DNA of 64,000 bases from an uncultured Pseudomonadales bacterium (GCA_964393205.1 CAYMSV010000002.1:96843-160842); one strand, 5' to 3'; shown: positions 3,547 to 62,796, numbered from the stretch's first letter. A program made the numbers and translations. The notes: generated by a model from the sequence alone, not told the origin.

Positions 3547-3566
3547 CAGCTAATTATTAGAAATTT

Positions 3567-13234: not shown

Positions 13235-13390
13235 ATCAACCTTTCTCTTAATTAAAAATCTGATTTAATCATCTTTTCAATAAGAAAAAATCAGACTGTA
13301 TCAAAGTTATCATCTTTTTAAAAAAATTACTAGGGGAAAAAGCTGAGGATTAGAGGTATAATAATTTATTGGTATAATTATTTAAGAATC

Positions 13391-14232: not shown

Positions 14233-14271
14233 AAATTGGCTTAAAAAAAGAGCTATAGATACAAAAAAAAC

Positions 14272-14400
14272 CCTTTGTTCTGGCCTCGACCTATCTTCGC
14301 AAGGGAAAATCCCTAACTATTGTCAGCGCTGAGACGTTTCAAGACTCTGTTCGGGATGGGAAGAGTTGGGACCATCTCGCTCCAGAGACCAGAACAAAAG
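14272..14400 (-). rRNA. rrf: 5S ribosomal RNA
   Basis: The reverse complement reads ...GGTCCCAACTCTTCCCATCCCGAACAGAGTC...GAAACGTCTCAGCGCTGACAATAGTTAGGG..., with terminal helix I pairing (CCTTTTGTTCTGG/CCAGAACAAAGGG). It lies just downstream of the 23S on the same strand. Ends are approximate. Confidence 0.8.
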
Positions 14401-14484
14401 GTTTTTTTCTAAAGAACAATTGTTAATTATATAACATAAATGCTCTTAAACATGTGAAGAAGTCAACTGCCGTCCAATAACAGT

Positions 14485-17425
<2,941 letters not shown>

Positions 17426-44642: not shown

Positions 44643-45047
44643 TTATTCTTTGTTTTTTGATTTCTTCAGTAAATTTAATTTCCACATAAATAATTTAGCC
44701 TTACTTCTAGCGCTTTCAGCGTCACTAACAAAGGCTAAGGCTTGTTCTAGTAAGGCGCGTGGATAAGTTTTAGCTAATTTAATATAAAGCGAGGTATGAG
44801 CTTGATCTCCTAAAACTGTCGCCATATGACAACCAAATGCCTGAAATTCCTGGCTAATATATTTATTGTGTTTTTTTATTGGATGGTGAGTTAATAGCTT
44901 GGCTACAGCACTAAAACCTGGATTTAAATTTTCTTTTCGATCTTCAGACTCAGCTTCTCCACTTGCTTGTAAACTATCAAATAAACTTTGCTCAACGATG
45001 ATAGGTTTTTTAGCTTTTTTTTGACCCTTATGTTTTTTAACAGGCAT
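44643..45047 (-). CDS. Hypothetical basic protein
   Basis: 134 aa with Lys-rich termini; no family recognised. Confidence 0.35.
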   Translation of the reverse strand: MPVKKHKGQKKAKKPIIVEQSLFDSLQASGEAESEDRKENLNPGFSAVAKLLTHHPIKKHNKYISQEFQAFGCHMATVLGDQAHTSLYIKLAKTYPRALLEQALAFVSDAESARSKAKLFMWKLNLLKKSKNKE

Positions 45048-45092: not shown

Positions 45093-45782
45093 TCAAGTCA
45101 AGATTTTATTTAAAATTTGATGATTTTTTTTACTTAAATCTTTACTAAAAGGACCTTTTTCTTCAATCAAAATTTTTAATTTGGTGTCCCCAGCTAAACT
45201 TTGATAAAAATCTAACTGAATTTTTAGAAGCTCTTTGGCTTGCGACATATTTTTTTTACCATTATTAGTAAAATCAACTAACCAATCAGCGCTAATTAAA
45301 TATTGACCTAAATTATAAACTTCTTCTCCTCCACCAATTGTGAAACAAACTTGATTAGCTAAATGCATGTTGTGAGGGCGAACCATATGACCCTTAACCC
45401 CTGCTTCTAATTCCTTAGGATCGGCAAAGGGTAAAATTCCCACATATTCGAGTTTTAATTGATCAGCTAATGCAGCTAAATGTTGTTGAGTGCTAGCATT
45501 GGTTTCGTCCCAATCGTTAAGATTAAGCTCTTGTTTAAACCAAGCATTTTCTTCACTAGCAGCAATTTTCAATTTTTTATCTTTTTGCTCTTTAGGGAAA
45601 TTATTTAAAATTGTTTTCTGTAAGGCATCAACCACTTGAGAAAAATATGCTAAACGAAAACCAGAACCTAAAAAAGCAAAGCGACGACCATGATTGAGTT
45701 GTACTCCTTCATCACCATCTGCAATCACTAAAGGAACAGCTTGATAGTCGACAGACTGAGCTGATTGCTTACTTTTGCTCAT
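45093..45782 (-). CDS. Hypothetical protein (possible Rossmann-like fold)
   Basis: 229 aa. The FTIGGGEEVYNL segment is reminiscent of LOG/SLOG-type glycine-rich loops. This is weak. Confidence 0.3.
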   Translation of the reverse strand: MSKSKQSAQSVDYQAVPLVIADGDEGVQLNHGRRFAFLGSGFRLAYFSQVVDALQKTILNNFPKEQKDKKLKIAASEENAWFKQELNLNDWDETNASTQQHLAALADQLKLEYVGILPFADPKELEAGVKGHMVRPHNMHLANQVCFTIGGGEEVYNLGQYLISADWLVDFTNNGKKNMSQAKELLKIQLDFYQSLAGDTKLKILIEEKGPFSKDLSKKNHQILNKILT

Positions 45783-46011: not shown

Positions 46012-47031
46012 TTATTGAAATATAGGATATTTTTCAATAACAAAATCCCTTAACTTTTTAGCAATCAGCAAATTGCTTAAACTATTGTAATGAGATTCCT
46101 TTTCAGACACTGGATTTATTTCTTCACCACAGAGATCAACTATTGGTAACTGTTTTTTACAAGCAGAATGAAATTTATAATAAATATCTGAAACTAAACA
46201 ATCGTTATAACTACCTTCACTATCACAAAAATGATTTAAACAAGCAAAAAGAAAAAAAATGGTATCTTCTTTAGAGAAATTTTTAATTAAATTTGTAAGA
46301 AAACAATAATTTTGAGTTTCATGTCCAAAGGTCGGATGATAAATTAATCTAGTCATATCACGACTGGAAACGTCTTTTTTTCCTTCAATTAATTGCCTGT
46401 TTGGACAAGTTTTGATCAGTTCTTGATAAATAACTTCCTTAGTTGGATATCTTTGAAAACTATTAAAAAGAAGATCGTTGTCAACTAAGCCAAAAATAAT
46501 TAAATCAGGTTTTAAATATTTTTTTACTAATTGGTATTTTGCGTAATTATCTAAAAAATCATCACCAAAAAAACTATAATTATAAACTTTAACATCACGT
46601 ATTTTTTTTACTTCTTGCTCTAAAAAATAAGCTATAGTTTGACTACTTCTTACACCTGTACCAAAAAACATTGAATCTCCAATTATAGCTATTTTTAAAA
46701 CAGAGTCTTTTTGTTCTTTTTCCAAAAGATCTATTGCTTCTTGATCACCTAATCCTGCCGAAATAAGATTTAATAAATCAGTATTTCTTTGATCGTGATT
46801 AAATTTCTCAGCTACTATTTGCCAATCTTCTATGTCATATGGCCAAACTGAATAATAACCATGAGGAAGACTCTTTTTATAAAACAGTTTATCAAAAAAA
46901 CATTTTTCTGATAAAAAGAAGAGACCAAAAAATAACAAAACACTAATGATTAAAGCCATTAGCACAACCGAAATTTTCTTGATAACTAGGAAAACATTAG
47001 TGGACTTAATAATACTCAACATCAGCAACAC
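46012..47031 (-). CDS. Membrane-anchored SGNH/GDSL-like hydrolase, paralog 3
   Basis: 339 aa. It shares the FLSEKCFFDKLFYKKSLPHGYY box and the GDS block IAIIGDSMFFGTGV with paralogs 1 and 2. Confidence 0.5.
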   Translation of the reverse strand: MLLMLSIIKSTNVFLVIKKISVVLMALIISVLLFFGLFFLSEKCFFDKLFYKKSLPHGYYSVWPYDIEDWQIVAEKFNHDQRNTDLLNLISAGLGDQEAIDLLEKEQKDSVLKIAIIGDSMFFGTGVRSSQTIAYFLEQEVKKIRDVKVYNYSFFGDDFLDNYAKYQLVKKYLKPDLIIFGLVDNDLLFNSFQRYPTKEVIYQELIKTCPNRQLIEGKKDVSSRDMTRLIYHPTFGHETQNYCFLTNLIKNFSKEDTIFFLFACLNHFCDSEGSYNDCLVSDIYYKFHSACKKQLPIVDLCGEEINPVSEKESHYNSLSNLLIAKKLRDFVIEKYPIFQ

Positions 47032-47194: not shown

Positions 47195-48817
47195 CTAGTT
47201 CAAAAGTTTTTCTAACAAAAGAACTTGGAAATCATGATTATTAAATGATAAATAAAAGTTATCCTTAATTATCAGTTTAGAAAAGCTATCTCCTTCAAAC
47301 TCACTAATTCCTTGTGTAAATTTATCAAAACATTGATTGCCAGTCTTATAATCATTATAAACAAGAAAATAGAACCGATTGCCAGCATTATAATTATCCA
47401 AGGACTGATATTTAAAGTTGATTGAATCTCTAATCATAAGTTTTTTATTTATCAAATGATCTATGGGTTGTGCTAAAAATCTAGTTTTTCCTAAATAATC
47501 ATTTTCACAAATATCTTCACCTAAATAATCTCTATTAAAATGGTAAAAAATCATAACATCACTACGATTTAATCTATATTCATCTATTTTTTGAATAATA
47601 GCTTCACTAACGATTTCATTAAAAGCATAAGAACTAGAATCCTTCATACCTGGTTTAGGCAAAACAAGAGAAATATTGTGAAGAAAAAATAATATTAAAA
47701 AAGCAATAATCGGTAGAATTAAAATGATTTTATAAATATTTTTTTTACAATTCAAAATTTGTTTCATTTTTATTGATAAAAAAATAAAAAAAACAATAAC
47801 AATTAAGTCTATCCTATGTGGTGCATAAGGAGCATCTATATTAATTAGAAAATAAGGGGTTAATAAAATCCACAACAAAAGCCAAAAATTATCAAAAACT
47901 TTGTTAGATAAATCTGATTCATGCTTAAAAAACTTATTGATTAATAATAAAAAAATTATGAATATTATAAATAATACTTTCCAAAACACATGTTGATTGT
48001 TAAAAAGCAAACTAAAAAAAACTTCAAAAATGTTCCAATAATGTGTCGTTACCCTACTTAGATTAATTGGCAATAGATTTTCACGATGTTTTAAAATGGC
48101 TAAAATAGATGGCCAATTATTGAGAATTTCAAAAATAAGCTGTGATGAATATGTAATAATAAAAAAAACTAACATTGAATAAACTAATAAAAAGTAACTT
48201 CGCAGAGACGTGTTGTTTAATTTTTTAAAAAATAGATAGGAGTTTAAACAAATAACGGGTAAAATAAAAAATGAAGAAGGATAAATAGTTAAGGCAATGA
48301 AAAAAGAAAATTGGCTTAAAAAAAGAAAAAGTAATTTACTAGATTTTAGAGAAATCAAACCTAAAAAAATTGATAAAGAACTAAAAAAAATGCTTGGATG
48401 AGGATGCCAAACAGTTCTGCTTAAGAAAACATGATAATGCCAAAAAGTAAAAATTCCTAAAAATACAAGACTAATTAGCTTATCTTTATTATTTAACAAA
48501 TATATAGATAAAAATAAAAATAAAATCGAAAATAAACCCATTAAGGCATAAAAAACAGATACTAAAAAAAATTCGCCATGAGCAAGAAAATAAAAAAAAG
48601 AAATTAAATACAAATAGGTTGGTGGTATAAATAAACCACTAATACCAATTGCTGGATTAACTAAGGGAAACTTCTTTTCTAAGTTGATCGTTCTAGCAAC
48701 TTCCAACTCATAACCAACATCAACAGTCATGTCAGAAAATTCCAGATTGGTAAGCCTTAAAAATCCAGCTAATAAAAATAATATTAAGAAGATATTTAGA
48801 AAAATAGCCTTTTTCAT
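47195..48817 (-). CDS. GT-C fold glycosyltransferase (PMT/ArnT family-like), paralog A
   Basis: 540 aa. Its N-terminus aligns closely with that of 51870-53576 (FLRLTNLEFSDMTVDVGYELEVAR versus YLRFYNLQANTLYGDSGYELEKAR). The first-loop acidic motif after TM1 and the 11-13 TM architecture are as in PMT_2/ArnT. Confidence 0.5.
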   Translation of the reverse strand: MKKAIFLNIFLILFLLAGFLRLTNLEFSDMTVDVGYELEVARTINLEKKFPLVNPAIGISGLFIPPTYLYLISFFYFLAHGEFFLVSVFYALMGLFSILFLFLSIYLLNNKDKLISLVFLGIFTFWHYHVFLSRTVWHPHPSIFFSSLSIFLGLISLKSSKLLFLFLSQFSFFIALTIYPSSFFILPVICLNSYLFFKKLNNTSLRSYFLLVYSMLVFFIITYSSQLIFEILNNWPSILAILKHRENLLPINLSRVTTHYWNIFEVFFSLLFNNQHVFWKVLFIIFIIFLLLINKFFKHESDLSNKVFDNFWLLLWILLTPYFLINIDAPYAPHRIDLIVIVFFIFLSIKMKQILNCKKNIYKIILILPIIAFLILFFLHNISLVLPKPGMKDSSSYAFNEIVSEAIIQKIDEYRLNRSDVMIFYHFNRDYLGEDICENDYLGKTRFLAQPIDHLINKKLMIRDSINFKYQSLDNYNAGNRFYFLVYNDYKTGNQCFDKFTQGISEFEGDSFSKLIIKDNFYLSFNNHDFQVLLLEKLLN

Positions 48818-50173: not shown

Positions 50174-50905
50174 TCATTTTGATATTTCAATCAATCTGTT
50201 GCAATATTTTTTTAAGTGATCAACAAAATGGCTGACCAATATGAGGGTAACATCGTTATTAAACATCTTTTTCATTACTTGCCTAGACTTTTCTTGAAAA
50301 TCCCTGTCTCCCATACTCATTACCTCATCCAACAAGAGAATGTTAGGTTTTGCATGAATAGCTATACTAAAACCCAACCTCAACTTCATTCCATTAGAAT
50401 AAGTATATAAAGGAGCAGTAACAAAATCTCCAATTCCAGCAAAATCAATTATTTGATTAAATTTGTCTCTAATCTCTTCTCTAGACATACCAATAACTAA
50501 ACCGTTTAAAAAAATATTTTCTTGTCCAGTTAAATCTGGATGAAAACCGGCCGCTAAATCTATTAAAGAAATAATCCTCCCTTTTGTCTGTACTTTTCCA
50601 GAAGTTGGCGAACTAATTCTAGCAATAATTTTTAGTAAAGTTGTTTTTCCAGCACCATTTGCTCCGAAAAGACCAATTTTTTCTCCCTTGTGAATTTTTA
50701 AATTAACATTTTCTAAGGCCCAATACTCCTCTTTTTTTTCAAAACGTAAAATTCGATTAACGTCCTCAATGAGAGTTGGTTTATCGTGGGTAATAATATA
50801 TTTTTTACTAACATCAGTTAAATTGATTACTACCTCACCAGATTTTTTTCTATTACGCAAAGTTTTTTCTTTAAAAACTGTCATATTTCTCCAAATTATA
50901 ACCAA
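50174..50905 (-). CDS. ABC transporter ATP-binding protein, Wzt/TagH/KpsT type (polysaccharide export)
   Basis: Walker A GANGAGKTT, signature-like YSNGMKLRLGFSIAIH and Walker B ILLLDEV. No C-terminal substrate-binding extension. It overlaps the upstream permease gene. Confidence 0.8.
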   Translation of the reverse strand: MVIIWRNMTVFKEKTLRNRKKSGEVVINLTDVSKKYIITHDKPTLIEDVNRILRFEKKEEYWALENVNLKIHKGEKIGLFGANGAGKTTLLKIIARISSPTSGKVQTKGRIISLIDLAAGFHPDLTGQENIFLNGLVIGMSREEIRDKFNQIIDFAGIGDFVTAPLYTYSNGMKLRLGFSIAIHAKPNILLLDEVMSMGDRDFQEKSRQVMKKMFNNDVTLILVSHFVDHLKKYCNRLIEISK

Positions 50906-51702
50906 TCATCAAAATTGACATTTTCTTTTTTGAAAACACGATAACCAAAGTAAAAAATGCCAATAATTAAAATAACTGCTACCCAAATAAAGTTTATTAA
51001 AGTAATAGGCAATCCCATCAAAGCAAAGTGAAATAATTCAATAATAGTTGTCATAGGATTTAAATAAAAAATTGGCCACAAAAATTCTGGCAATAAGTTT
51101 AGTGCATAGATCACTGGAGTGGCATAGAACCACAACATAACTGCCAACTGAATTATAAAATTGATATCACGAAACCTGACGTTTAAAGAAGAAGTAAAAA
51201 GCGATAAACCAATTGTAAAAAACAATAACAAAATTAACGCTGGAAAAAGCCATAACATACGTGAGACATAAAAAACCAGTTGTATTAAGCCATAATTTTC
51301 AAAAAATAATTTGTCTCCAATTAAAGCGCCTATTAATAATAATAAAGCTACTAAAAAATGAAAGAAATTGGAAAAAATAATTGATAAAACAATACTTTCT
51401 CTAGGAAATTTGGCCTTTTTAATTAAATTTCTCTCATAAAAAAAAGCTGGAGTAGATTTGGTCAAACTTTGAGAAAAAAAGTTCCAAGGCAAAAGTCCTG
51501 CAAATAAATATAGAAAATAGTTATCAACAGAAACCGGTACAAAAAACTGAAAAACAAAACCCATAACCACCATTTGTAAAATTGGATTTAAAATTATCCA
51601 CAAAAAACCAAAAGTAGCTCGTTTATAGCGAGCTTTAATCTCTTTTTCAGTCATGGCTACTAAAAAATCAAACCAGTGACGTCGCTTATTCTTCAAGAAC
51701 AT
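50896..51702 (-). CDS. ABC-2 type transporter permease (Wzm/TagG-like)
   Basis: 268 aa with six TM. The N-terminus (EIKARYKRATFGFLWIILNP) matches the ABC-2 permease N-terminal amphipathic helix motif. Confidence 0.7.
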   Translation of the reverse strand: MFLKNKRRHWFDFLVAMTEKEIKARYKRATFGFLWIILNPILQMVVMGFVFQFFVPVSVDNYFLYLFAGLLPWNFFSQSLTKSTPAFFYERNLIKKAKFPRESIVLSIIFSNFFHFLVALLLLIGALIGDKLFFENYGLIQLVFYVSRMLWLFPALILLLFFTIGLSLFTSSLNVRFRDINFIIQLAVMLWFYATPVIYALNLLPEFLWPIFYLNPMTTIIELFHFALMGLPITLINFIWVAVILIIGIFYFGYRVFKKENVNFDDWL

Positions 51703-53738: not shown

Positions 53739-54986
53739 ATGTTTGGCGTTAAAACTAAAATTATTAATCGATTGAAGAAAAATTTTTATAATATTAATTT
53801 TAATAGTTTAACGTCTTCTGTAAAAAGAAAAACTTTAGCCTTGCTAGTAAAATCAGAACTAGAGAGAGAACTTCAATACGTAGATATTCAACAACCCATA
53901 GCTAAAAAAACCAATCATTTTGCTTCTTATATACTAAAAAAAACCACTGACTATATGCCAAATAATTTGGGCAATTGGTCAATTAAAAAACCAGGCACTC
54001 TGAGTGGAAAACTCGAACTAACCATCATTGAAACTCTAAAAAAACAATACAATTGTAACAAAGAGATTGTTGGTCATTTTGGATCAGGGACAACAGAGGG
54101 CAATATTTATGCTGCCTGGATTGGAAGAAATTACTTATCCAAAAAACTAAAAAGCAAAAATTTTGATAAGCTGATCCTAATCAAAAGTAGTTTAAGCCAC
54201 TATTCTCTTGATAAAGCAAGCGATATTATAGGCATTAAAAACTTTGAAGTTAGTATTGATCAAACTAAGTTCAATCTTGATTTAGCAGAATTTGAGCTCA
54301 TCATTAATAAACTTTATAAGCGTGGCTACAGAGGTTTCTTAGTTCCCCTCACTCTAGGCTATACCGTGACAGGCACCGATGATGATTATCTTGCAATTAT
54401 TAAAATTGTAGAAAAATTTAAGAAAGAAAAAAAAGATTGTGAATTCTTCATATGGCTTGATGCTGCCTTCACTGGAATAAGTAAAATATTTGATCAAAAA
54501 AAATTTGAACCATTTAAAAACAAACAAATACAATTATTAAGTACAGATTTACATAAATTTTTAGCCGTTCCTTATCCGGCTAGCGTTTTGCTTTACAGAA
54601 AAAATTTGCTAAAACATGTTGCCAAGCCAATTCCCTACATTGATCAACTAGATAGTACTTTACTGGGTTCTAGATCTGGAAACATGGTTATAGCTAGTTG
54701 GTTTACCTTAATTAACTTAAATCATCAAAAAATGCGCAAGCTCATTAACGAGAGCCTGAAGGAAAAAGAAAATTACTTAGACAAAATTGTCAAAGAGAAA
54801 ATCAAGGTTACCATCATTAATAATAAAAATAGTTTACAAGCTTGTTTAATTTCTCACAATAAAAAAGCTGACGAAATATTATCTAAAAAATATGGTCTCT
54901 CTAGCATCGAATATCCTCTACTAATTAAAAATAAGACACAAGTTACCAAGATTTATAAATTATATTTTTTTACAACACTGAGATAA
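53739..54986 (+). CDS. PLP-dependent group II decarboxylase-like protein
   Basis: 415 aa. HFGSGTTEGNIYAAWIGRN resembles the Gly-rich cofactor loop. STDLHKFLAVPYP is the S-x-x-HK PLP-lysine motif of MfnA/GAD/SPL-type enzymes. WLDAAFTG is also present. Confidence 0.5.
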   Translation: MFGVKTKIINRLKKNFYNINFNSLTSSVKRKTLALLVKSELERELQYVDIQQPIAKKTNHFASYILKKTTDYMPNNLGNWSIKKPGTLSGKLELTIIETLKKQYNCNKEIVGHFGSGTTEGNIYAAWIGRNYLSKKLKSKNFDKLILIKSSLSHYSLDKASDIIGIKNFEVSIDQTKFNLDLAEFELIINKLYKRGYRGFLVPLTLGYTVTGTDDDYLAIIKIVEKFKKEKKDCEFFIWLDAAFTGISKIFDQKKFEPFKNKQIQLLSTDLHKFLAVPYPASVLLYRKNLLKHVAKPIPYIDQLDSTLLGSRSGNMVIASWFTLINLNHQKMRKLINESLKEKENYLDKIVKEKIKVTIINNKNSLQACLISHNKKADEILSKKYGLSSIEYPLLIKNKTQVTKIYKLYFFTTLR

Positions 54987-54988: not shown

Positions 54989-55834
54989 ATGACACAATCA
55001 TCAATTAAAAAAATCTATCATCAATCCAAATTTAATCTGGGTTTCAAAAGAAACTTAGAAAAATATTTCGGTTTTGAAACTTTTTTGAAAAACCAATACA
55101 ACAAAAGTAAGTTCTTTTTTGATAATAAAATTATTTACCCCGTATTTGCAAAAATTAGTCATTATTTATATCAACAAGTTATTGATTATTACGGAGCTGA
55201 TTATAGGTGGAACGATCAAAAAAGCCAAAATATAGATAAAAAAACCAATAATTATGGCTATGGTCTCTTTCATTACTCAATGATTAGAAATCAAAAACCA
55301 AAGCGTGTTTTATGTATCGGTTCAATGTACGGGTATATTCCCTACATGATGGCTAAAGCCTGCCAAGATAATAATTTTGGTAGCATTGATTTTGTTGACG
55401 CTAATTATAATCTTAAAGATGATGAGAATAATCAGAATCATTATTTTGGAGAAGGTTTCTGGAATAAAGACCGCGTAGCAAATCATTTTAATTATTTATT
55501 GAATCAAAAATTCATAAACACCTACGTCATGCGCACTGATCAATTTGCTCATAAATATTCAAGTAGAAAATACGATTATGTTTGCTTAGACGGGGATCAT
55601 TCATACAAAGGAGTAAAAACAGATTTTAAGCTATTTTGGCCAAAAATTAAGAAGAATGGCTTTCTTTGTTTACATGATATTGATCTTGTAGTTGACCCTA
55701 AAAATCCAGATTTTATGAATTTAGAGTTCAACTATAAAAAATTTTGGGAAGAATTAGTAGCAAAAAAGAGTTTTCAATATAAATTTGAAATCTCTAATCA
55801 ATATTCAGGCCTAGGTTTTATTCAAAAAAAATAA
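54989..55834 (+). CDS. Class I SAM-dependent methyltransferase (Methyltransf_24 / CmcI-TylF-like)
   Basis: 281 aa with VLCIGSMYGY and DYVCLDGDHSYKGVKTDFKLFWPKIKKNGFLCLHDI. These are typical of the cephalosporin hydroxylase / macrocin O-MTase-like family. Confidence 0.55.
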   Translation: MTQSSIKKIYHQSKFNLGFKRNLEKYFGFETFLKNQYNKSKFFFDNKIIYPVFAKISHYLYQQVIDYYGADYRWNDQKSQNIDKKTNNYGYGLFHYSMIRNQKPKRVLCIGSMYGYIPYMMAKACQDNNFGSIDFVDANYNLKDDENNQNHYFGEGFWNKDRVANHFNYLLNQKFINTYVMRTDQFAHKYSSRKYDYVCLDGDHSYKGVKTDFKLFWPKIKKNGFLCLHDIDLVVDPKNPDFMNLEFNYKKFWEELVAKKSFQYKFEISNQYSGLGFIQKK

Positions 55835-55839: not shown

Positions 55840-56802
55840 TTATACTTTTATCAATGCTTTTTTCAATCTTTGACGAATTGTATACCACAAATTAAACATA
55901 TAGATTGTCTTATCCTCAACACCAGCCTCTTTAAAAGAGTTTCTTCTATCAACACAGGTGGCACAAGCATCACCACATTGAAATAGCTTATGTTGATAAC
56001 AAGACCAAGTTTTTTCAAAAGGAACCTTTAAATGTTTACCTAGCTTAATTGTTTCTTTTTTATCTAACATAAGCCCCATTTCCCTTTCCAAAAAAACTGA
56101 TGAAAAATTCCAATCATATTCAGCTTTAGCGCCACAAATGGACAATAAGGTTGTTCTAAGCGAAGTAAAGGATTGGCTAGGAATCACAAAACCGTCAGAA
56201 AAATTTATACCTGTATATATATCTTTAATGTTAATGCCCTTGGTATATTTTAAATAATCAGCATAAAACACTGCATAAAAAGACATTAAATAAGGTGAGA
56301 TTCCATTAGCTCTAGTAATTACAACGTTAGATTGATTATTAACCATCTTATTGTTTTGGTTGAAATTATTTAGTAAATCATTGGCAGTGAGAAGTTTTTC
56401 ATTACTTAAGTCTAAAACTTCTTTTGGAGTAGGATTAACATGTAAATGAAAAGGTTTTATGTAATTCTCTGGATATTTTGCTGAAAAATGTTTTTCTAAA
56501 TTTTTAACGGCTCTCAACTCTCTCTTAGCTCTTTTCTTTAATCCTCTATCAATAATTAAAGGATAAACTTGATAATTATATATATCCAATAAAGCAGCCC
56601 AAGCTACGGTCGAATCTATCCCTCCAGAAAGCAATAAAATAACTTTTGTTTTAGCTTTTGGTTTGCGAAATACATAACCCCTTTTTTTGATAAAAAAATT
56701 ATCAACAGCGTCAATTAAATCCAAATCTTCTACTTTTCTTTCTTTAAGCAAATTATCAAACCTTGATTTTGAAATTTTAGGCAAATATTTCTTTTTTCTC
56801 AT
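55840..56802 (-). CDS. QueC-like (ExsB family) PP-loop ATPase, extended
   Basis: 320 aa. The PP-loop is VILLLSGGIDSTVAWAAL. The C-terminal segment WSCYQHKLFQCGDACATCVDRRNSFKEAGVEDKT matches the QueC Zn-binding tail (CY...CG.C..C..R..GF..AG..D). There is an extra ~50 aa N-terminal basic extension. Confidence 0.55.
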   Translation of the reverse strand: MRKKKYLPKISKSRFDNLLKERKVEDLDLIDAVDNFFIKKRGYVFRKPKAKTKVILLLSGGIDSTVAWAALLDIYNYQVYPLIIDRGLKKRAKRELRAVKNLEKHFSAKYPENYIKPFHLHVNPTPKEVLDLSNEKLLTANDLLNNFNQNNKMVNNQSNVVITRANGISPYLMSFYAVFYADYLKYTKGINIKDIYTGINFSDGFVIPSQSFTSLRTTLLSICGAKAEYDWNFSSVFLEREMGLMLDKKETIKLGKHLKVPFEKTWSCYQHKLFQCGDACATCVDRRNSFKEAGVEDKTIYMFNLWYTIRQRLKKALIKV

Positions 56803-56911
56803 CGGCTTTCATCTTAATCTAAAGACTCCTGCTTTTCAAGAAAAAAGAAACATCATAACGATCGTTGACAACTCCTAATAATTGAGTCTAGAATAATAAA
56901 GAGATAAAAAT

Positions 56912-56989
56912 ATGAAAAAATATACAAAACCAAGCCTGAAAAAAAGCAAAATCAAGATAAACTTTGCTTTTACTATTGTCAAAACATAA
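56912..56989 (+). CDS. Small ORF (25 aa), candidate precursor/leader peptide
   Basis: ATG at 56912 with AAAGAG 8 nt upstream. It translates to MKKYTKPSLKKSKIKINFAFTIVKT* and ends 22 nt before the PqqD-like gene on the same strand. It is not in the ORF track. Confidence 0.25.
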   Translation: MKKYTKPSLKKSKIKINFAFTIVKT

Positions 56990-57011
56990 ATTAGAAAATT
57001 TATAATCCTTT

Positions 57012-57320
57012 ATGTTTAATTCTGAAAAACTGTTTTCTAGTTTTGTTTTTTGTCGCTCAAGTGTTAATTTTAGCAAAAAAAAAGATACTTTCTTAGTTTT
57101 ATCTCAAGACCGCAAACACATTCTGGAACTTAAAGATGTATCTTTTAGTATTTGGCAAAATTTAGAAAAACCAATCTCTTTTTCTGCATTGATAAAGAAA
57201 CTCCAAAAGGAGTATGACGTGGCAGAAGAAGTTTTAGAAAAAGATTTAAAATCTTGGTTAAAAGAAGCTTTAAAAGAAAAGATTATTAAAAAAGTAAAAT
57301 TAAACAACCTTAATCATTAA
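57012..57320 (+). CDS. PqqD-like protein (RiPP recognition element family)
   Basis: 102 aa. The stretch FLVLSQDRKHILELKDVSFSIWQNLEKPISFSALIKKLQKEYDVAEEVLEKDLKSWLKEALKEKII follows the PqqD pattern (l.l.....g..y.LN.tg..iW.ll.g..t..ei...l...Y.v......Dv..fl..L...gli). Confidence 0.55.
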   Translation: MFNSEKLFSSFVFCRSSVNFSKKKDTFLVLSQDRKHILELKDVSFSIWQNLEKPISFSALIKKLQKEYDVAEEVLEKDLKSWLKEALKEKIIKKVKLNNLNH

Positions 57321-58343
57321 GCCTAAAAAATTTTTACGATCGACATAGCCTGGGTCTGAATACAAATTACTGTCGCCTTTAGTGATAATTTTGCCTTTTT
57401 CTAGACCATGAAAACGATGCACCACTACGTTTTTCAGCTCCTGATGCCAAAAAGCAATAATGTCTCCCTTTTTTAAATTTTTAAAGTTAATTCTCTTTAT
57501 CAAAACTTCATCACCTTTTAAGACCAAGGGTTCCATACTTCCACTGCCAGCAGTTGCTACAAACTTTTCACCTATTGGTAAATTTTTTAAAAAATTAAAC
57601 ACCAACCCAGCCTTTTTATTATCAGGCATCTTCTCTAGCACCAAAGAGTTGCAATATTTTTTATATTCTAGCAACACTTCCTGACCACCATCCATAAACA
57701 ACTGACCCTTCTCTAACCAAATAAAACGATTACATAGTCTACGAAGTAGAGGTAATAGATGGCTACATAAAACAATTGTTTTGCCTTGCTTAAAAATCTC
57801 TTCTACCTTGTCAAAAGCTTTTTTTTGAAAATCATTGTCTCCTACCACAATGCCCTCATCAATAATAAAAATATCTGGATCACAGTGTACAGCTATAGAA
57901 AAAGCTAAACGTAAAATCATTCCCGATGAATAAGTATATAGAGGTCGGTCTATAAATTGAGCAATACCAGAAAATTCAATAATTGTACTTTCTAATTTTT
58001 TAATTTTATTCAGTGAAGTACCCAAAACTACAGCATTTAAATAAATATTTTCCCTACCAGAGGATTGAGGATAAAAACCAGCAGTTAAATCAATCAGAGA
58101 AATAATTTTCCCAAAATGCTTAACCCGACCCTCACTAGCTTGAGCTATACCAGTAATTAACTTTAGTAAAGTTGTTTTTCCAGCTCCATTATTACCTAAA
58201 ACAGCTACTTTTTCTCCTTTATATATTTTTAAGTCAATGTTTTTTAAAGCATAAAAAGTTTTTTCTTTGTCAGAGTCAATTGAAGGATAAATCTTATTAA
58301 CCTTGTCCAGTTCTATTGCTAATCTTTGCTTTTGTTTAGACAT
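57300..58343 (-). CDS. Wzt-type ABC transporter ATP-binding protein fused to a C-terminal Sec11/SipW-type (S26) signal-peptidase-like domain
   Basis: 347 aa. The N-terminal ~230 aa are an ABC ATPase (GNNGAGKTT, YSSGMILRLAFSIAVH, IFIIDEG). The C-terminal ~100 aa read GSGSMEPLVLKGDEVLIKR...GDIIAFW...VVHRFHG...ITKGDSNLYSD. This reproduces SPase I boxes B (SGSMEP), C, D (VHR, the ER/archaeal His type) and E (GDN..D). Confidence 0.7.
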   Translation of the reverse strand: MSKQKQRLAIELDKVNKIYPSIDSDKEKTFYALKNIDLKIYKGEKVAVLGNNGAGKTTLLKLITGIAQASEGRVKHFGKIISLIDLTAGFYPQSSGRENIYLNAVVLGTSLNKIKKLESTIIEFSGIAQFIDRPLYTYSSGMILRLAFSIAVHCDPDIFIIDEGIVVGDNDFQKKAFDKVEEIFKQGKTIVLCSHLLPLLRRLCNRFIWLEKGQLFMDGGQEVLLEYKKYCNSLVLEKMPDNKKAGLVFNFLKNLPIGEKFVATAGSGSMEPLVLKGDEVLIKRINFKNLKKGDIIAFWHQELKNVVVHRFHGLEKGKIITKGDSNLYSDPGYVDRKNFLGLMIKVV

Positions 58344-58346: not shown

Positions 58347-59141
58347 CTATAACCAATCATCTACTTTTTTACTTTGTTTTCTAAAAAAATCTAGAGAAAA
58401 AACTAAAAATAATATAGAAAATAAGCCATTTATCAAATATTCCTGAAAACTCATGCCTAAATCTAAAAATATCGAGCGAAACATTTCAATGAACTGAAAT
58501 AAAGGGTTTAAAGACAAGATTCCAGCTAAATTGTTAGGAAGTAAGTCGCGAGCATAAAAAATTGGTACCATAAAAAAAGATAGTTGAATAATAAAATCTA
58601 TTACCACCATAAACTTTTTAACTCTTGCAACTAAAATTGAAAAAAACAGAGCTACAGCTAGAGAAAAAAAGGCTAAAAAAATTGATAAAACACTAAATAA
58701 AAAAAAGGATTTAATAAAATAAGCAAAAGCCACTCCAAAATTAACAGAAGAAAAACTTACAAAAAGCAATATTAATAAACTAGTAATAAAATAAGGAATA
58801 AAACTTACTATCAAAGTTTTTATCAATAAAAGTTCTCTAGGAAAAACCGCTTTTTTAATAAGATTTTGTTCATCAACTAAAATTATTGCAGAACTCTTAA
58901 TAAATTTGGCAAAAAAACTCCAGGAGATTAATCCTGATAATATAAATAAAAAATAATTATTATCTTTAGAAACAAGCATAAAAGATAAAATGAAAGAAAG
59001 AATAAATGCTTTAATAATAGGAGTGCTAATTTCCCATACTAAGCTCAAAAAACTCCTTTTACTACTCACGTTCAAATCTTTTTTTGTCATCAGAAGCAAA
59101 AAATCTAAGTATGGAAATTTTTCTTTATATTCTTGAGTCAT
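58347..59141 (-). CDS. ABC-2 type transporter permease (Wzm-like), partner of the Wzt-peptidase fusion
   Basis: 264 aa with six TM helices. It lies 3 nt upstream of the ATPase gene on the same strand. Confidence 0.7.
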   Translation of the reverse strand: MTQEYKEKFPYLDFLLLMTKKDLNVSSKRSFLSLVWEISTPIIKAFILSFILSFMLVSKDNNYFLFILSGLISWSFFAKFIKSSAIILVDEQNLIKKAVFPRELLLIKTLIVSFIPYFITSLLILLFVSFSSVNFGVAFAYFIKSFFLFSVLSIFLAFFSLAVALFFSILVARVKKFMVVIDFIIQLSFFMVPIFYARDLLPNNLAGILSLNPLFQFIEMFRSIFLDLGMSFQEYLINGLFSILFLVFSLDFFRKQSKKVDDWL

Positions 59142-59300: not shown

Positions 59301-60614
59301 ATGATTAACTGCCCAAAAATTAAAGATATTAGAAATAAAAAAATCTTAGTCAGGGTTGACTTCAATGTCCCCTTAAAGTTAGTTGCAGGTAAAGCTGGAA
59401 ATAAAAATGCAGTTTGGAGAGTAGCTGATAGTGACAGAATCAGTAGTGCTCTGGAAACTATCAATTTTTTAATCGATCATAAGGCAAAAGTAGTTTTAAT
59501 TTCACATCTCGGCAGAGCTGAAGGTAAAAAAAATCATGATTTGAGTTTATTACCAGTGGCCAAATTTTTGAAAAATAATTTAGATTTACCTGTTGAATTC
59601 GTTGACGATTGTGTGGGTTTAAAAGTTGCAGAAAAATCAAAAAAATTAGTCAGTGGCCAAGCCTTATTATTAGAAAATCTGCGTTTTTACCCTGGAGAAG
59701 AAGTAAATGATCTGAATTTTACCAAACAACTAATTAAAGACAGTGGGGCTGAAATATTTATTAATGAAGCTTTTAGTGCTAGTCATCGAGCCCATGCTAG
59801 CGTAGTTGGCTTGGCTAAGCGCTTACCTAGTTACGCTGGTTTTAATTTAAAACGAGAAGTTGAACATTTCAATAAAGCTCTAGAAAATATTAAGCGACCA
59901 CTAATTTTAGTGATGGGTGGCGCTAAAATTTCTGACAAAGTAGCTACTATGCAAAATTTATCTCGCTTAGCAGATGTTGTTTTGGTAGGAGGTGGGATTG
60001 CCAATGCCATGCTTCGAGCCGGAGGAATTGAAACCCATCGCTCTTTCATTGGCGCAAACGAAGAAAAAGAACCAGATGAAGTTAAAAAAATTATGAATAT
60101 GGCAAAAGAAATATTAGTTGAACATGCTACAGAACGAGTTTTGTTTGAAGAGCTTGGCAAAGATCGTAAAAATCTACCGCTTCCTAAAATTGTTTTACCA
60201 ATCGATGTATTAGCAGCTAAAAATGCAAAGGCTACAAAAACTGAAAAAATCACTTTGCTATCAGATGTTGCAGACACTGACAATGATCGCGATATTAAAT
60301 ATTTAGATATTGGTCCAGAAACTATTAGACTCTATCGCTATATTCTAAAAGAAGCAAAAACTATTGTTTGGAATGGTCCAATGGGTGTATTCGAAAATCC
60401 TAATTTTGCTCGTGGCAGTCGAGAGATTGCGCGCGCGATTGCGCGCGCTACTCAAAAAGGCGCTATTTCTCTAGTAGGTGGTGGAGAAAGCAATAGTGTT
60501 ATTAATCGAACAGGATTACACGAACAGTTTACTCATATATCTACTGCTGGTGGAGCTGCGCTAGAATTTTTGAGCGGTAAAGAGTTGCCTGGAGTTAAAG
60601 AATTAAAAAAATAA
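59301..60614 (+). CDS. pgk: Phosphoglycerate kinase
   Basis: KKILVRVDFNVPL is the N-terminal substrate-binding motif. PGK hinge and ATP-binding regions are present (GGGIANAM..., GGGESNS, TGGGA). 437 aa. Confidence 0.95.
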   Translation: MINCPKIKDIRNKKILVRVDFNVPLKLVAGKAGNKNAVWRVADSDRISSALETINFLIDHKAKVVLISHLGRAEGKKNHDLSLLPVAKFLKNNLDLPVEFVDDCVGLKVAEKSKKLVSGQALLLENLRFYPGEEVNDLNFTKQLIKDSGAEIFINEAFSASHRAHASVVGLAKRLPSYAGFNLKREVEHFNKALENIKRPLILVMGGAKISDKVATMQNLSRLADVVLVGGGIANAMLRAGGIETHRSFIGANEEKEPDEVKKIMNMAKEILVEHATERVLFEELGKDRKNLPLPKIVLPIDVLAAKNAKATKTEKITLLSDVADTDNDRDIKYLDIGPETIRLYRYILKEAKTIVWNGPMGVFENPNFARGSREIARAIARATQKGAISLVGGGESNSVINRTGLHEQFTHISTAGGAALEFLSGKELPGVKELKK

Positions 60615-60624
60615 TTTTGATATT

Positions 60625-62796
60625 TTAAAAAGAATACCGTTCATCTAATTTTTGTAAAATAATTTTCTTTTGCTTATCATCTAAACCAACTTCTAAATGA
60701 CCTGTTAAATAACCCTTAACACCTGCTTCTTTATCAAGCATTGCTTTTACTAATTGTTCAAACTTTAATAGCTGATTTTCTTCAAAAAGATTAGTTGTCA
60801 CTTGTCTATACAAAAATAAATAATGATGATAGTCGCCACTTTCTTTGGCTGAAAAATCTTTAAAATTTAAAAAAAAGTGACTTAATTGATCTAAATTGTT
60901 TTCATCTAAAAAAACTGCTCGCTCTTTAAAGAATATATAAGAATCAAAAAAATATGCTGACTGATAAAAATAGCTAGCTCTCGACCAATCACCTTGCAAA
61001 TAAGCATTTTGTGCTAAATTATAAATTTGCCTCGCTAAATCTATTTGTTGTTTGTAGCTAATAAAATAGTAATCATTAAACATTTTATAGTCTCTTTTGA
61101 TTTCAAATAGCTTCTTCAAGAGAATCTCTGAATCTTGTAGAGACATATCTTTGAAATTAACTTGATTTACAAAAGCCACTGGATCTATCTTAGCCAAATC
61201 TAAATATAAATCTTTCTTTCTTGATTTATCTAAATCTTGCAAATTTAAAAAACGAGTAATAAATTCGCCATCATAACGATACCAACTGTACAGATTCTCA
61301 TAATTAACAGAGTTAATTGCTGAATCATTCATTGGAGCTTTGGCTGCAAAATTAAGAAATGGTGTAAATTTTAACCAAAGCTCAGGTTTCTTTGACTGCC
61401 AATAAACTGTCAAAAGATCAGCAAGCACTAAAGAAACAGTAACAAAAAATAAAAATGATAAATAAAAAAACCACAACTTGTTTGATTTTTTTTGAGCATG
61501 ATTTTTAACATCACCTGACAAAATAAGAGCCAAAAATATAAGTGTCAATAAAAAAATAATAAAAAAATTCCAATCAAAATCTAGCATTGCATTTATTAAA
61601 GAACTAATAGCAGCCAAATAAAGAAAATTATTTAAAGATTTTTTTGAGTCTAAAACTAGACTTCCAGCTTGATAGAAAATAAACAAACTAAAGAGAATAA
61701 AACTTCCTCCACCGATAACACCCATCTCTGCCAAATTATGAAAAAAAATGTTATGTGCATAAGCGCTATGAGTTTCATTAGCTATTGGAAAACGACGAGA
61801 TACATATTTAAAAGAACCTAAACCATAACCAACAAGTGGATAGTTTTTAAAACTCAACCAAGCTTGTCTCCAATAAAAAAACCGACTGTTCTCACTTACT
61901 GAAATACACAAATCCTTACGATATAAACGCAAAGGACACTTACGCTCATCATTAATGAGTAATGGCAAAGACAAAAGTAAAAAAATCAAGGCAGCTGATA
62001 AAAAACTCAAGACGATACTTTTAATTAAAAAGTAAAAAATTTTATTTTTACGTAACTTATAAAAATCCTTTTTGAGTAATAAAAAAATAATAAAAAATTG
62101 CACAATACTAATAAACAAAGCCCAACGAGATAAACTAATCAATAATAAAAAATAAGAACTAATTAATAAAAAAATATCAAAAAATGATTTAAGTTTATTT
62201 TTAAAAAAATAAGAAGAATTTTTTTTGAATAAATGCCACCAAACTAGAGGTAAAAGTAAAAGTAAAAAAGCTGCGTAATGATTGTGGCCATAGCTCCTAA
62301 CTAATAAGTTCATTCCTTGAAAAAAATCTTGTGAATTGCTGACAAAACTCAAAACAATAACCAAAATATTCAATATGAAAGTAAGTAATAAAAGATATTC
62401 AACAAACAGTTGGGCCTTAAAATACTTATTTTTAAGTTTTAAAACGAATAGAAAAATACTAATAGCTGTTAAATAAAACAAATATTTTTCCAAAGAAAGA
62501 GGTTTGTGGTGAGAAAAAATGCTGCTGACAAAGGCTAGTAATAAGAAACAACAACTTAAAACACAAGTTTTATCTAAAAAAATTTCTTTTATTTTTAGTG
62601 AAAAAACACTATTTTTATCTGAATTTGAAGACTTTAATATCACTTTCTTGTCTTTTTTTACAAAAGTATAAGTTAGCAGGAATAATGACCACAAGGCAAA
62701 TAAATAGAATTTGTATTCTGTTTCCATCAAAAAAAGAGACAACAGAGCAAGCGTTGAAAAAAATGGATAAAAGTATTTAAACAAAAAATTAGTCAT
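60625..62796 (-). CDS. O-antigen ligase/Wzy_C-domain membrane protein with long C-terminal soluble extension (paralog of 32498-34852)
   Basis: 723 aa with SYGHNHYAAFLLLLLPLVWWHLF, a Wzy_C block HNIFFHNLAEMGVIGGGSF and an SRW loop (LLISLSRWALFISIVQ). A ~300 aa C-terminal non-membrane region follows. Confidence 0.55.
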   Translation of the reverse strand: MTNFLFKYFYPFFSTLALLSLFLMETEYKFYLFALWSLFLLTYTFVKKDKKVILKSSNSDKNSVFSLKIKEIFLDKTCVLSCCFLLLAFVSSIFSHHKPLSLEKYLFYLTAISIFLFVLKLKNKYFKAQLFVEYLLLLTFILNILVIVLSFVSNSQDFFQGMNLLVRSYGHNHYAAFLLLLLPLVWWHLFKKNSSYFFKNKLKSFFDIFLLISSYFLLLISLSRWALFISIVQFFIIFLLLKKDFYKLRKNKIFYFLIKSIVLSFLSAALIFLLLSLPLLINDERKCPLRLYRKDLCISVSENSRFFYWRQAWLSFKNYPLVGYGLGSFKYVSRRFPIANETHSAYAHNIFFHNLAEMGVIGGGSFILFSLFIFYQAGSLVLDSKKSLNNFLYLAAISSLINAMLDFDWNFFIIFLLTLIFLALILSGDVKNHAQKKSNKLWFFYLSFLFFVTVSLVLADLLTVYWQSKKPELWLKFTPFLNFAAKAPMNDSAINSVNYENLYSWYRYDGEFITRFLNLQDLDKSRKKDLYLDLAKIDPVAFVNQVNFKDMSLQDSEILLKKLFEIKRDYKMFNDYYFISYKQQIDLARQIYNLAQNAYLQGDWSRASYFYQSAYFFDSYIFFKERAVFLDENNLDQLSHFFLNFKDFSAKESGDYHHYLFLYRQVTTNLFEENQLLKFEQLVKAMLDKEAGVKGYLTGHLEVGLDDKQKKIILQKLDERYSF

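Follow-up and report, generated by a model that had tools for sequence, protein, structure and literature searches.

Does a short lysine-rich open reading frame (ORF) that directly precedes a PqqD-like gene encode a precursor peptide, and to what pathway might such a peptide belong? The question is raised by a 64,000-nucleotide stretch of DNA from an uncultured Pseudomonadales bacterium (GCA_964393205.1, CAYMSV010000002.1:96843-160842), called here the window, for which a first-pass annotation had proposed that a 25-codon ORF and the PqqD-like gene behind it form a pair, the precursor of a peptide that is ribosomally synthesised and modified after translation (RiPP) and its RiPP recognition element (RRE). 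Our analysis supports this arrangement through the conservation of the ORF, a YxxPxL leader motif in its product and the retention of RRE contact residues in the PqqD-like protein. From these comparisons of sequence we consider it probable that the product of the small ORF is the precursor (or scaffold) peptide, made by the ribosome, of a RiPP-type pathway, and that the next gene encodes the protein that recognises it. The elements concerned are the following, with coordinates counted from the first nucleotide of the window.

56912-56989, + strand: small ORF with an ATG start, 25 amino acids, nine of them Lys, encoding MKKYTKPSLKKSKIKINFAFTIVKT
56912-56968, + strand: predicted leader, residues 1-19, MKKYTKPSLKKSKIKINFA, with a putative Y4-x-x-P7-x-L9 RRE-binding motif and the conserved Ala19 as its last residue
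56969-56989, + strand: predicted core or tail FTIVKT (56969-56986), where the peptides vary, and then the TAA stop codon (56987-56989)
57012-57320, + strand: PqqD-like discrete RRE, 102 amino acids, matching Pfam PqqD

The two genes lie on the same strand with a gap of 22 nt (56990-57011) between them, just as the first-pass annotation had placed them.

Conservation of the small ORF

By itself the small ORF is at chance level: complete ATG ORFs of at least 25 codons were found in 34% of shuffles of the 209-nt intergenic region (26% G+C), and the Lys richness of the product is expected from base composition. Because the length of the ORF alone is unsurprising, the case for it rests on comparative evidence. 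The PqqD-like protein has only 11 relatives among 5.8 billion proteins (90% clustering), and we compared the contigs of these relatives and further loci, coded L001 to L022, together with a locus coded P0042. In all related loci with sequence (the window, L001-L009, L012, L015-L019, L021 and L022) a homologous small ORF lies directly 5' of the PqqD gene, on the same strand and 22-29 codons long, giving about 15 distinct sequences. Twelve distinct peptides form the close family, examples being MKKQAKKYSKPEITKNKVKINFAFAVAK, MKKYNKPVLKKAKVKISIAAVEMN, MKKEVKKYVKPSLKKNKIKVSLAPTEPM and MKKQLKKYLKPELKKVFIKLTAAINE. PqqD identity across the loci that keep an intact small ORF ranges from 81% down to about 22-45%. 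The first-pass annotation had held that the ORF should be doubted if it were absent or frame-disrupted in relatives that retain the PqqD-like gene, and the homologue proved to be intact in every locus with sequence.

The comparison of synonymous sites suggested at the same time was also carried out, and substitutions were mainly synonymous, the mean pairwise proportion of synonymous differences (pS) being 0.73 versus 0.22 for nonsynonymous differences (pN) over 17 aligned codons from the conserved Tyr (66 sequence pairs). The third codon position varies in 16 of the 17 codons, and positions 1 and 2 in 10 and 9; the conserved Leu9, for example, is written CTG, CTT, CTC, CTA or TTA among the relatives. 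Insertions and deletions come in whole codons, the difference in N-terminal length being one whole four-codon block, and the frame, start codon and stop are retained in about 15 divergent loci whose nucleotide sequences differ. In six-frame translations the pattern M..Y.[KRPA]P...stop has one match per locus, always 5' of PqqD, and a single match within the 64-kb window; it is absent from the six-frame translation of L020, a locus without PqqD. A scan of 56500-57400 against Rfam gave no match at E values up to 1, and therefore this interval contains no known riboswitch or leader RNA. A profile of the peptides compared with the chains of the Protein Data Bank gave chance matches only (E at least 2). 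The conservation in relatives raises the small ORF above chance, and the pattern of substitution indicates that it is a conserved protein-coding gene.

Recognition protein and leader motif

The PqqD-like protein matches Pfam PqqD (PF05402) with E=5.6e-11 and 43 bits, above the cut-off of 23.4. Its best NCBIfam match is lasso_PqqD_Bac, at 37 bits versus a cut-off of 80; the PqqD model TIGR03859 gives 22.7 bits with a cut-off of 46, and scores for the NCBIfam lasso, PqqD and WgkC models are all below their cut-offs. When a profile of the family was compared with solved structures, the best match was PbaB1 (9x90_B, 3.4e-7), followed by TbiB1 (5v1u, 3.4e-5), LppB (9x8z_B, 1.7e-3) and TfuB1 (6jx3, 0.017), with PqqD itself (3g2b) reaching only 0.068. 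By these profile matches, the nearest solved relatives of the PqqD-like protein are the RREs of lasso peptides and of the linear polyphosphorylated peptides (LPPs).

Discrete RREs of the lasso type bind a leader motif of the form [Y/W]xxPx[L/V/I..]. In the peptides encoded by the small ORFs the Tyr and Pro of Y-x-x-P are invariant (14 of 14 aligned), and two residues after the Pro there is a Leu or Ile in the 12 close peptides. The crystal structure of LppB has Asp70 hydrogen-bonded to the leader Tyr and Phe74 packed on the Pro (Popov et al., Nat Commun 2026, PMC13381572). In an ungapped alignment (chain numbering is the numbering of the paper plus 18) these residues correspond to Asp78 and Trp82 of the PqqD-like protein, and Tyr60 of the first pocket corresponds to Tyr68; all three are invariant in the family. 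By this alignment the PqqD-like protein retains the residues that contact the leader motif in the LppB and PbaB1 crystal structures, and we infer that it would bind the leader of the small peptide.

One public source labels the PqqD-like protein (57012-57320, + strand) 'uracil DNA glycosylase'. This label is a mis-annotation; models of uracil DNA glycosylase give a partial match of 17-19 bits, with cut-offs of 162-186. Outside the host group of the close relatives, which is described below, the nearest PqqD relatives come from metagenome-assembled genomes of Smithella, at about 35% identity (L010, 1640-4984; L011, 4921-5202). The relative in L010 stands beside a GT2 glycosyltransferase and a 649-aa asparagine-synthase-like protein, an arrangement like that of a lasso cyclase, and the fetched DNA has no obvious B2 protease or precursor.

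Transcription and translation signals

Three further elements surround or overlap the start of the two genes.

56865-56894, + strand: promoter-like site TTGACA-18 nt-TAGAAT, 11/12 matches, ending 17 nt 5' of the small-ORF ATG
57001-57006, + strand: TATAAT hexamer, 5 nt before the ATG of the PqqD-like gene
56888-57076, - strand: antisense ORF of 62 amino acids with a TTG start, overlapping the small ORF

The site at 56865-56894 was the best in a promoter scan of 56600-57500, and TTGACA-N17-TATACT/TATAAT stands 5' of the small ORF in L001, L002, L003, L007, L012, L015, L016, L017 and L018. It is therefore likely, judging from these motifs, that this site is the promoter for the peptide and PqqD-like pair. 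In relatives, the small ORF is preceded by Shine-Dalgarno motifs of the AAGGA or GGAGG type.

The TATAAT hexamer had been noted in the first-pass annotation and is indeed present 5 nt upstream of the PqqD-like ATG. It is not conserved in relatives, and no -35 element was paired with it in the promoter scan; it may match by chance or serve as an internal promoter from which a leaderless mRNA starts. Within the window, TAnAAT is found no more than 40 nt upstream of 16 of the 47 gene starts, versus 11% of random positions, and it is often 5-14 nt from the start codon. Because this spacing is frequent in the genome, the hexamer at 57001-57006 is not dismissible. Further examples of such starts are those of the genes at 22014-23213, 7921-8514, 39031-40578 and 50896-51702 (all on the - strand), in addition to 57012 (+ strand). 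A Shine-Dalgarno-like motif within 20 nt is found at only 4 of 48 gene starts in the window, and it may be that mRNAs with a short leader, or none, are common in this genome. We considered the absence of a Shine-Dalgarno motif before PqqD as a sign of translational coupling and rejected it, as these motifs are rare here and the argument applies to the relatives only.

It could be asked whether the small ORF is a regulatory upstream ORF that sets the expression of the PqqD-like gene through coupling, stalling at its K-rich/KP sequence or re-initiation, with a peptide that is no substrate. We give this explanation a small chance. The distance from stop to start is 0-48 nt in 14 of 15 loci, with a TAAATG in L012 and 1 nt in L016, and a clear Shine-Dalgarno motif precedes the small ORF of the relatives, while their PqqD start usually lacks one, all of which would suit such a role. 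However, the residues that are conserved are those of the Y-x-x-P-x-L motif, and the protein keeps the matching pocket residues, while neither the spacing nor the intervening sequence is conserved, the region has no Rfam element and Shine-Dalgarno motifs are rare in the window genome. Coupled translation would in any case be compatible with a precursor role and is no substitute for it.

A reading that we find scarcely credible is that the small ORF is a chance ORF in an AT-rich divergent promoter region, conserved as promoter or untranslated sequence, or that the antisense ORF is the real gene. The frequency of ORFs of this length in the shuffles and the promoter-like sites on both strands could be cited for it, but the coding pattern of substitution, the retention of frame, start and stop in divergent loci and the lack of an Rfam match speak against it. 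As for the antisense ORF, which the first-pass annotation had thought less likely to be real, it does exist, but L001 and L003 have no antisense ORF of at least 20 amino acids spanning the small ORF, and an equivalent is found only in the very close relative L005. By this comparison it is not a gene.

Organisation of the module and the QueC-like enzyme

The genes that accompany the pair in the window are listed here.

55840-56802, - strand: divergent QueC-like PP-loop ATPase, 320 amino acids, Pfam QueC E=4.3e-19, transcribed divergently from the small ORF
54989-55834, + strand: class I S-adenosylmethionine (SAM)-dependent methyltransferase, Methyltransf_24, Pfam E=1.3e-14
53739-54986, + strand: group II pyridoxal phosphate (PLP)-dependent decarboxylase, histidine/tyrosine-decarboxylase-like, Pfam Pyridoxal_deC E=1.1e-11
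57642-58343, - strand: ATP-binding cassette (ABC) transporter ATPase domain, TagH/Wzt-like, the N-terminal part of a 347-aa protein, Pfam ABC_tran E=2.7e-20
57300-57641, - strand: signal peptidase I domain of the archaeal/SipW/Sec11 type, the C-terminal portion of the same protein (residues ~235-347), TIGR02228
58347-59141, - strand: ABC-2 type permease, Pfam ABC2_membrane E=7.5e-12

The order of the module is methyltransferase, decarboxylase (in some loci), QueC-like gene on the opposite strand, small ORF, RRE, ABC ATPase-peptidase and ABC-2 permease, and the module is consistently embedded in glycan-synthesis loci. Wherever the locus extends far enough, the methyltransferase adjoins the QueC-like gene. 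Among NCBIfam models, the decarboxylase comes closest to histidine decarboxylase (130 bits, below the cut-off).

The QueC-like protein belongs to a clade of about 33 proteins of 283-340 amino acids, which is separated from canonical QueC by a gap in score from 132 to 72 bits. An AlphaFold2 (AF2) model of it has a predicted local distance difference test (pLDDT) score of 87.9, and its best Foldseek matches are the QueC structures 3bl5 and 2pg3. The SGGxDS PP-loop is kept (S58, G59, G60 and D62 are invariant), as is a C-terminal Zn-binding cluster of invariant Cys residues (C267, C275, C279 and C282), spaced Cx7Cx3Cx2C versus the canonical Cx8Cx2Cx2C. The substrate motifs have been replaced, DYGQRH by IDRGxxxR and YPDC by SQxFTxLR, and the protein has a 45-aa N-terminal extension and a central insert, canonical QueC being about 220 amino acids long. 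A canonical 7-cyano-7-deazaguanine (preQ0) synthase, characterised by YxQxHxxE, VPxRN and YPDC, is not a good description of it: the motifs DYGQRH and YPDC, needed for making preQ0, are lost, and the score for TIGR00364 is 49.8 bits, below the cut-off of 150. A defence-system role was also set aside, PADLOC having given a generic QueC match only, with QatC and ABC-like matches below threshold.

With one exception, every locus has the QueC-like gene linked to PqqD and the small ORF. Five distant members of the QueC-like clade were sampled (34-43% identity), and PqqD stands alongside in four of the five. The more distant loci and the exception are as follows.

L019: small ORF encoding MTKKKYIPPSHKSIALVGFLMACSSECG, with PqqD, the ABC-peptidase fusion, decarboxylase and methyltransferase
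L022: small ORF encoding MKKYEAPKHKTIGIEALLFTTG with a GGAGG Shine-Dalgarno motif, followed by PqqD, a sulfotransferase and the ABC-peptidase fusion
L021: small ORF encoding MKKRLKKKYSRPKIKKVSPKIFLLTSS with a TTG start and a GGAGG Shine-Dalgarno motif, with PqqD and a free 129-aa peptidase homologue
P0042 locus: free S24-type peptidase, ScmC-like protein, PqqD and QueC-like protein
L020: methyltransferase and decarboxylase with the QueC-like gene, and no PqqD, peptidase or small ORF within 15 kb

By this survey, the loci keep the peptide, the RRE, the QueC-like enzyme and the peptidase together in all cases but one. Sulfotransferases occur in two of the distant modules, an arylsulfotransferase in L019 (10213-11526) and a Sulfotransfer_1 protein right after PqqD in L022 (6926-7855), which hints at sulfation as an extra tailoring step in these variants.

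As an example of the modifying enzymes that PqqD-family proteins serve, the first-pass annotation had named radical SAM/SPASM proteins. In none of about 12 loci does the conserved module include a radical SAM gene; the place of partner belongs instead to the QueC-like ATPase, the methyltransferase, the PLP decarboxylase and the SipW-type peptidase on the exporter. Two other genes of the window were considered and rejected as partners. The only radical SAM gene of the window, at 35963-37087, is 20 kb away among glycosyltransferases and belongs to the module in no other locus. The 668-aa glutamine amidotransferase (GATase) protein at 30495-32501 (+ strand), considered as a lasso cyclase, lies 25 kb from the module and is a WbuX-type sugar amidotransferase, with an N-terminal glutamine amidotransferase domain and a PP-loop domain of the WbuX N-acetyl-sugar amidotransferase type; a 2026 survey of the QueC family places the WbuX-type amidotransferase group within the wider QueC superfamily.

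It is very improbable, in our judgement, that the module belongs to one of the canonical PqqD-dependent classes, that is, that it makes a lasso peptide, pyrroloquinoline quinone (PQQ) or a radical-SAM/SPASM peptide. Such an assignment could draw on the Pfam PqqD match and the lasso PqqD chaperone as the best NCBIfam model, on the lasso-like leader motif, on the Smithella relatives beside an asparagine-synthase-like gene, and on the radical SAM and amidotransferase genes in the window. Against it, no module locus has a radical SAM protein, an Asn_synthase cyclase or a B2 transglutaminase-type protease, the two window genes are excluded as just described, and the NCBIfam scores fall below the cut-offs. 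The tail is also too short for a lasso fold and has no Asp/Glu at core positions 7-9, and the peptide has no E-x-x-x-Y.

A signal peptidase domain on the exporter ATPase

The gene for the ABC-peptidase protein is convergent with the RRE gene and overlaps its end, and an ABC-2 permease adjoins the ATPase in all loci. The ATPase domain scores 163-175 bits against NCBIfam models of the TagH and Wzt/RfbE type, below the equivalog cut-offs. Its C-terminal partner domain matches TIGR02228 (sigpep_I_arch) with 63.7 bits, above the cut-off of 51.85, and aligns with human SEC11A/C (7p2q, E=1.8e-4) across SGSMEP, VHR and TKGDxN. Residues S269, H309, D324 and D330 are invariant in eight peptidase homologues, as is the helix just before the catalytic Ser. 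The Ser/His/Asp catalytic set is intact, the SEC11 alignment and the invariant residues support an active enzyme, and the domain is predicted to be a leader peptidase.

L019 and L022 also carry the peptidase domain fused to the ATPase, and in L021 and the P0042 locus it is free beside PqqD. An exhaustive search with the domain found many free homologues of 100-200 amino acids and at least 10 clusters (50% identity) of proteins of 326-359 amino acids that carry it at the C-terminus; all five of these longer proteins that were scanned have an N-terminal ABC_tran domain. Because at least 10 clusters place the domain at the C-terminus and 5/5 scanned have ABC_tran, we regard the fusion as a recurrent architecture. 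The searchable literature yielded no description of an ABC transporter ATPase that carries a fused signal-peptidase domain.

The window has two ABC-2 exporter pairs, the one with the permease at 58347-59141 and another at 50174-51702 (both on the - strand), and L019 likewise has two. Compared with the module permeases of relatives, the permease adjacent to the fusion has an identity of just 33-36%, and that of the other pair (50896-51702), where the ATPase is without the peptidase domain, an identity of 45-47%. These identities suggest a permease swap or divergence in the window genome.

Peptide tail, cleavage site and decarboxylase

Signal peptidases follow a classical rule of small residues at positions -3 and -1. 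Counting from the motif Tyr, an Ala at position 16 (Ala19 in the window peptide) is invariant in the 12 closest peptides, and if cleavage follows it, position -3 is occupied by N, S, A or T in each of them. The cut is placed after Ala19 because the distance of 16 residues between the Tyr and the cleavage site of LPP precursors was transferred to these peptides; with the -3/-1 rule, this would give FTIVKT as the core. The predicted cores have 3-6 residues, the tail of L018 being INE alone.

The tails fall into a Lys type (FTIVKT, FTLVKQ, FAVAK, FAAAKI and FAAMKT), with a conserved Lys21 counting from the Tyr, and a Glu type (AVEMN, VAEAI, PTEPM, LAEIP and INE), with a conserved Glu19. A Lys-type tail and the PLP decarboxylase occur together in 4 of 4 loci (the window, L001, L007 and L016), and in 3 of 3 loci with a Glu-type tail (L003, L009 and L015) the decarboxylase is absent. 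In L017 (3016-4736), which has a Glu-type tail, the decarboxylase is in fragments of 216, 76 and 90 amino acids, followed by a 96-aa methyltransferase fragment. This locus clusters with the Lys-type loci in a neighbour-joining tree, a placement that suggests a second, independent switch. The correlation may be taken as a hint that the tail is the substrate of the enzymes.

Comparison with known systems

The closest known system is the LPP family of Bacillota, whose clusters encode LppA as precursor, LppB as discrete RRE and LppS as SipW-like signal peptidase I (Popov et al., Nat Commun 2026, PMC13381572). LppS has a Ser/His/Asp set and cuts the leader only when the RRE presents it; the precursors contain YxxPxVLxHQxIxFETxxS, with the Tyr at -16 and with F-3, E-2 and T-1 important for cleavage, and the clusters sit within capsular polysaccharide loci and are described as restricted to Bacillota (PMC13381572). 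ABC transporters are not mentioned in that paper (PMC13381572). The module described here is like the LPP clusters in having a discrete lasso-type RRE, with D78 and W82 aligned to D70 and F74 of LppB, an N-terminal YxxP motif in the precursor and an archaeal/SipW-type Ser/His/Asp peptidase next to the RRE, in the 16 residues between the motif Tyr and the proposed cleavage site, and in its place within a cell-surface polysaccharide locus. The P0042 locus adds a further likeness, with ScmC/HprK-like and NTP_transf_5 genes beside the S24, PqqD and QueC-like genes.

The differences are also considerable. Apart from the distant P0042 locus, there is no HprK-like kinase or NTP transferase in the related modules or in the window genes from 25563 to 62796 (Pfam, 38 kb), and the tailoring genes are instead the QueC-like ATPase, the Methyltransf_24 enzyme and the PLP decarboxylase. 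In place of an MsbA-like exporter there is an ABC-2 permease with a TagH/Wzt-like ATPase, to whose C-terminus the peptidase is fused, whereas the LPP peptidase is free. Precursors here have 22-29 residues and a predicted core of 3-6, versus 35-200 amino acids, and only YxxPx[L/I] is common to both, the rest of the consensus (VLxHQxIxFETxxS) being absent. The hosts here are candidate phyla radiation (CPR) bacteria of the Microgenomates group, unlike the Bacillota of the LPP clusters. The logic of an RRE with a SipW-type peptidase has therefore already been published, and it is in the enzymes, the fusion, the length of the core and the phylum that the present module differs.

Split B1/B2 lasso pathways (those of TbiB1, TfuB1 and the PbaB1/paeninodin type) have the RREs most similar to ours and a YxxPxL leader, and they too combine an RRE, a leader peptidase, an amide-forming enzyme of the ATP-pyrophosphatase superfamily and an ABC exporter. 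However, no copy of the module has an Asn-synthetase-like cyclase or a transglutaminase-type B2 protease, places that the QueC-like enzyme and the serine peptidase take by analogy only. A lasso core needs at least about 14 residues, a Gly/Ala/Ser/Cys start and an Asp/Glu at positions 7-9; here the peptide continues for only 5-9 residues beyond the region of the leader motif and lacks an acidic residue at lasso distance. In comparison with the PQQ system (PqqA/PqqD), the peptide has no E-x-x-x-Y, and PqqB, PqqC and PqqE are absent from the module.

Cap9, of the type IV cyclic-oligonucleotide-based antiphage signalling system (CBASS), and QatC, of the QatABCD system, are QueC-family ligases that deazaguanylate the N-termini of proteins, forming an amide bond to a polypeptide in an ATP-dependent manner. 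The QueC-like protein shares their fold and PP-loop/Zn architecture, and it resembles QatC in its remodelled versions of the canonical substrate motifs and its added terminal extensions. It differs in having no CD-NTase, QatA, QatB or QatD partner, in QatC scores (PADLOC/NCBIfam) of 24-29 bits versus 280, and in its partner, a 25-aa peptide predicted to be RRE-bound; no 7-deazaguanine synthesis genes were seen in the window. We found no description in the searchable literature of a QueC-like enzyme paired with an RRE, PqqD or precursor peptide, and no such pairing is mentioned in the RRE-Finder paper, a 2025 paper on RRE structure or the 2026 survey of the QueC family.

Peptidase-containing ABC transporters (PCATs) have an N-terminal C39 peptidase domain and cut double-glycine leaders during export. 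They resemble the ABC-peptidase protein in that a leader peptidase is fused to an exporter, so that cleavage and export can be coupled. Here, though, the peptidase is of the serine type (S26B) and not a C39 cysteine peptidase, it is joined to a separate ABC-2 ATPase subunit, at the C-terminus, and not to a half-transporter, the predicted site is A-x-A-like and not GG, and an RRE belongs to the system.

The most likely pathway

The most likely sequence of events would be as follows. The promoter upstream of the small ORF would transcribe the peptide and RRE genes together, and the RRE would bind the N-terminal leader as an added beta-strand and offer the variable C-terminal tail, FTIVKT in the window, to the QueC-like enzyme. 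In the QueC family a carboxylate is first adenylated and then transferred to an amine, a reaction that canonical QueC carries further, to the nitrile, and that Cap9 and QatC use to acylate protein N-termini. Because of this family chemistry, amide or nitrile formation would be expected on the tail, the QueC-like enzyme using ATP to adenylate a carboxylate and convert it to an amide or possibly a nitrile. The carboxylate could be the tail's own, at the C-terminus or on a Glu, or that of a small acid joined to the tail Lys. The methyltransferase would modify the product further, as would the PLP decarboxylase in the variants with a Lys tail. The RRE would next present the end of the leader to the cytoplasmic peptidase domain on the exporter, which would cut after Ala19, with a small residue at -3, and the ABC-2 transporter would export the very short modified product. 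The cell surface is a possible destination, since the module is always found within glycan-synthesis loci. The boldest version of the proposal, in which a lasso-type RRE has brought a QueC-family ATP-dependent ligase or nitrile synthetase to act on a ribosomal peptide with a functional part of only 3-6 residues, and in which a signal peptidase built into a glycan-type ABC-2 exporter releases the product onto or to the surface glycan of ultra-small CPR bacteria, is a tentative one, and we think it possible rather than probable.

Several points weigh against the pathway outlined above. The ABC-2 transporter is most similar to exporters of glycans and teichoic acids and its neighbourhood is one of glycan synthesis, so that it may move a polymer rather than a peptide. 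In L020 the enzymes occur without a peptide, and for this reason they might act independently of one, for example in glycan modification. For a RiPP, the predicted 3-6 residues would make an unusually short core. The cleavage site is predicted by analogy, and the distant peptides of L019, L021 and L022 do not conserve the Ala at position 16. The correlation between tail and decarboxylase comes from eight loci and an unsupported neighbour-joining tree. Lastly, the AF2 model of the PqqD-like protein (11 sequences) is poor, with a pLDDT of 53.6, and it is in this low-confidence model that the order of secondary structure is beta-beta-beta-alpha-alpha-alpha.

Some of these same observations suggest another product. 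The peptide could be a reusable scaffold, held by the RRE through its conserved leader, on whose C-terminus or tail the QueC-like ligase builds a small molecule that is then tailored and released by the peptidase for export or attachment to glycan, and the system would then resemble small-molecule RiPPs of the pearlin/3-thiaglutamate or pantocin type. The shortness of the tails, only INE in L018, would fit a scaffold, as would an enzyme set suited to small molecules (the PLP decarboxylase and methyltransferase, with sulfotransferases in L019 and L022), the constant position within glycan loci and the presence of the enzymes without a peptide in L020. Yet the tail is not random: Lys21 or Glu19 is conserved by subgroup and tracks the decarboxylase, which points to tail residues as substrates, and no aminoacyl-tRNA-dependent ligase or other known scaffold-extending enzyme is present. 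We hold the scaffold to be rather unlikely, and it departs from the pathway set out above in the final product only.

Genomic setting and host range

The relatives that bear the module come from CPR genomes of the Pacebacteria, Microgenomatus and Roizmanbacteria type (Microgenomates group), and from the names of these genomes we infer that the host lineage of the window also belongs to the Microgenomates group of the CPR.

Around the module in the window there is a large cell-surface glycan locus, at 25563-51702 and 59301-62796. It includes several GT4 glycosyltransferases, three Wzy_C/O-antigen-ligase-like membrane proteins, a carbamoyltransferase, a polysaccharide deacetylase, a WecG/TagA protein and a twitch-type radical SAM protein, and at least five of its proteins are without a Pfam match (47195-48817, 46012-47031, 45093-45782, 44643-45047 and 26315-27934). 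A protein of about 966 amino acids with PQQ_2 beta-propeller repeats and a DUF5060 domain is found near the QueC-like module in three otherwise different loci: at 41722-44622 (+ strand) in the window, at 12824-15008 (- strand) in L020 and at 2578-5481 (+ strand) in L022, where it is directly upstream.

Significance

QueC-family PP-loop ATPases have so far been placed in 7-deazaguanine synthesis and in two anti-phage systems that modify proteins. If the pathway proposed here is correct, it would add a new class-defining type of RiPP enzyme, one that brings QueC chemistry (amidation, nitrile formation or nucleobase conjugation) to a peptide. Signal-peptidase cleavage of leaders, thought to be limited to Bacillota, would then reach the bacteria of the candidate phyla radiation, and the peptidase-ABC-2 fusion would be the first of its kind to act as a leader-cleaving exporter. 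The fusion suggests a second, independent invention of transporters that cleave while exporting, besides the C39-type PCATs. The small ORF was overlooked by gene callers, which shows how such systems remain hidden. CPR bacteria have tiny genomes and few known specialised metabolites, and a conserved peptide pathway within their surface-glycan loci could be relevant to the way in which these episymbionts use or decorate the cell surface.

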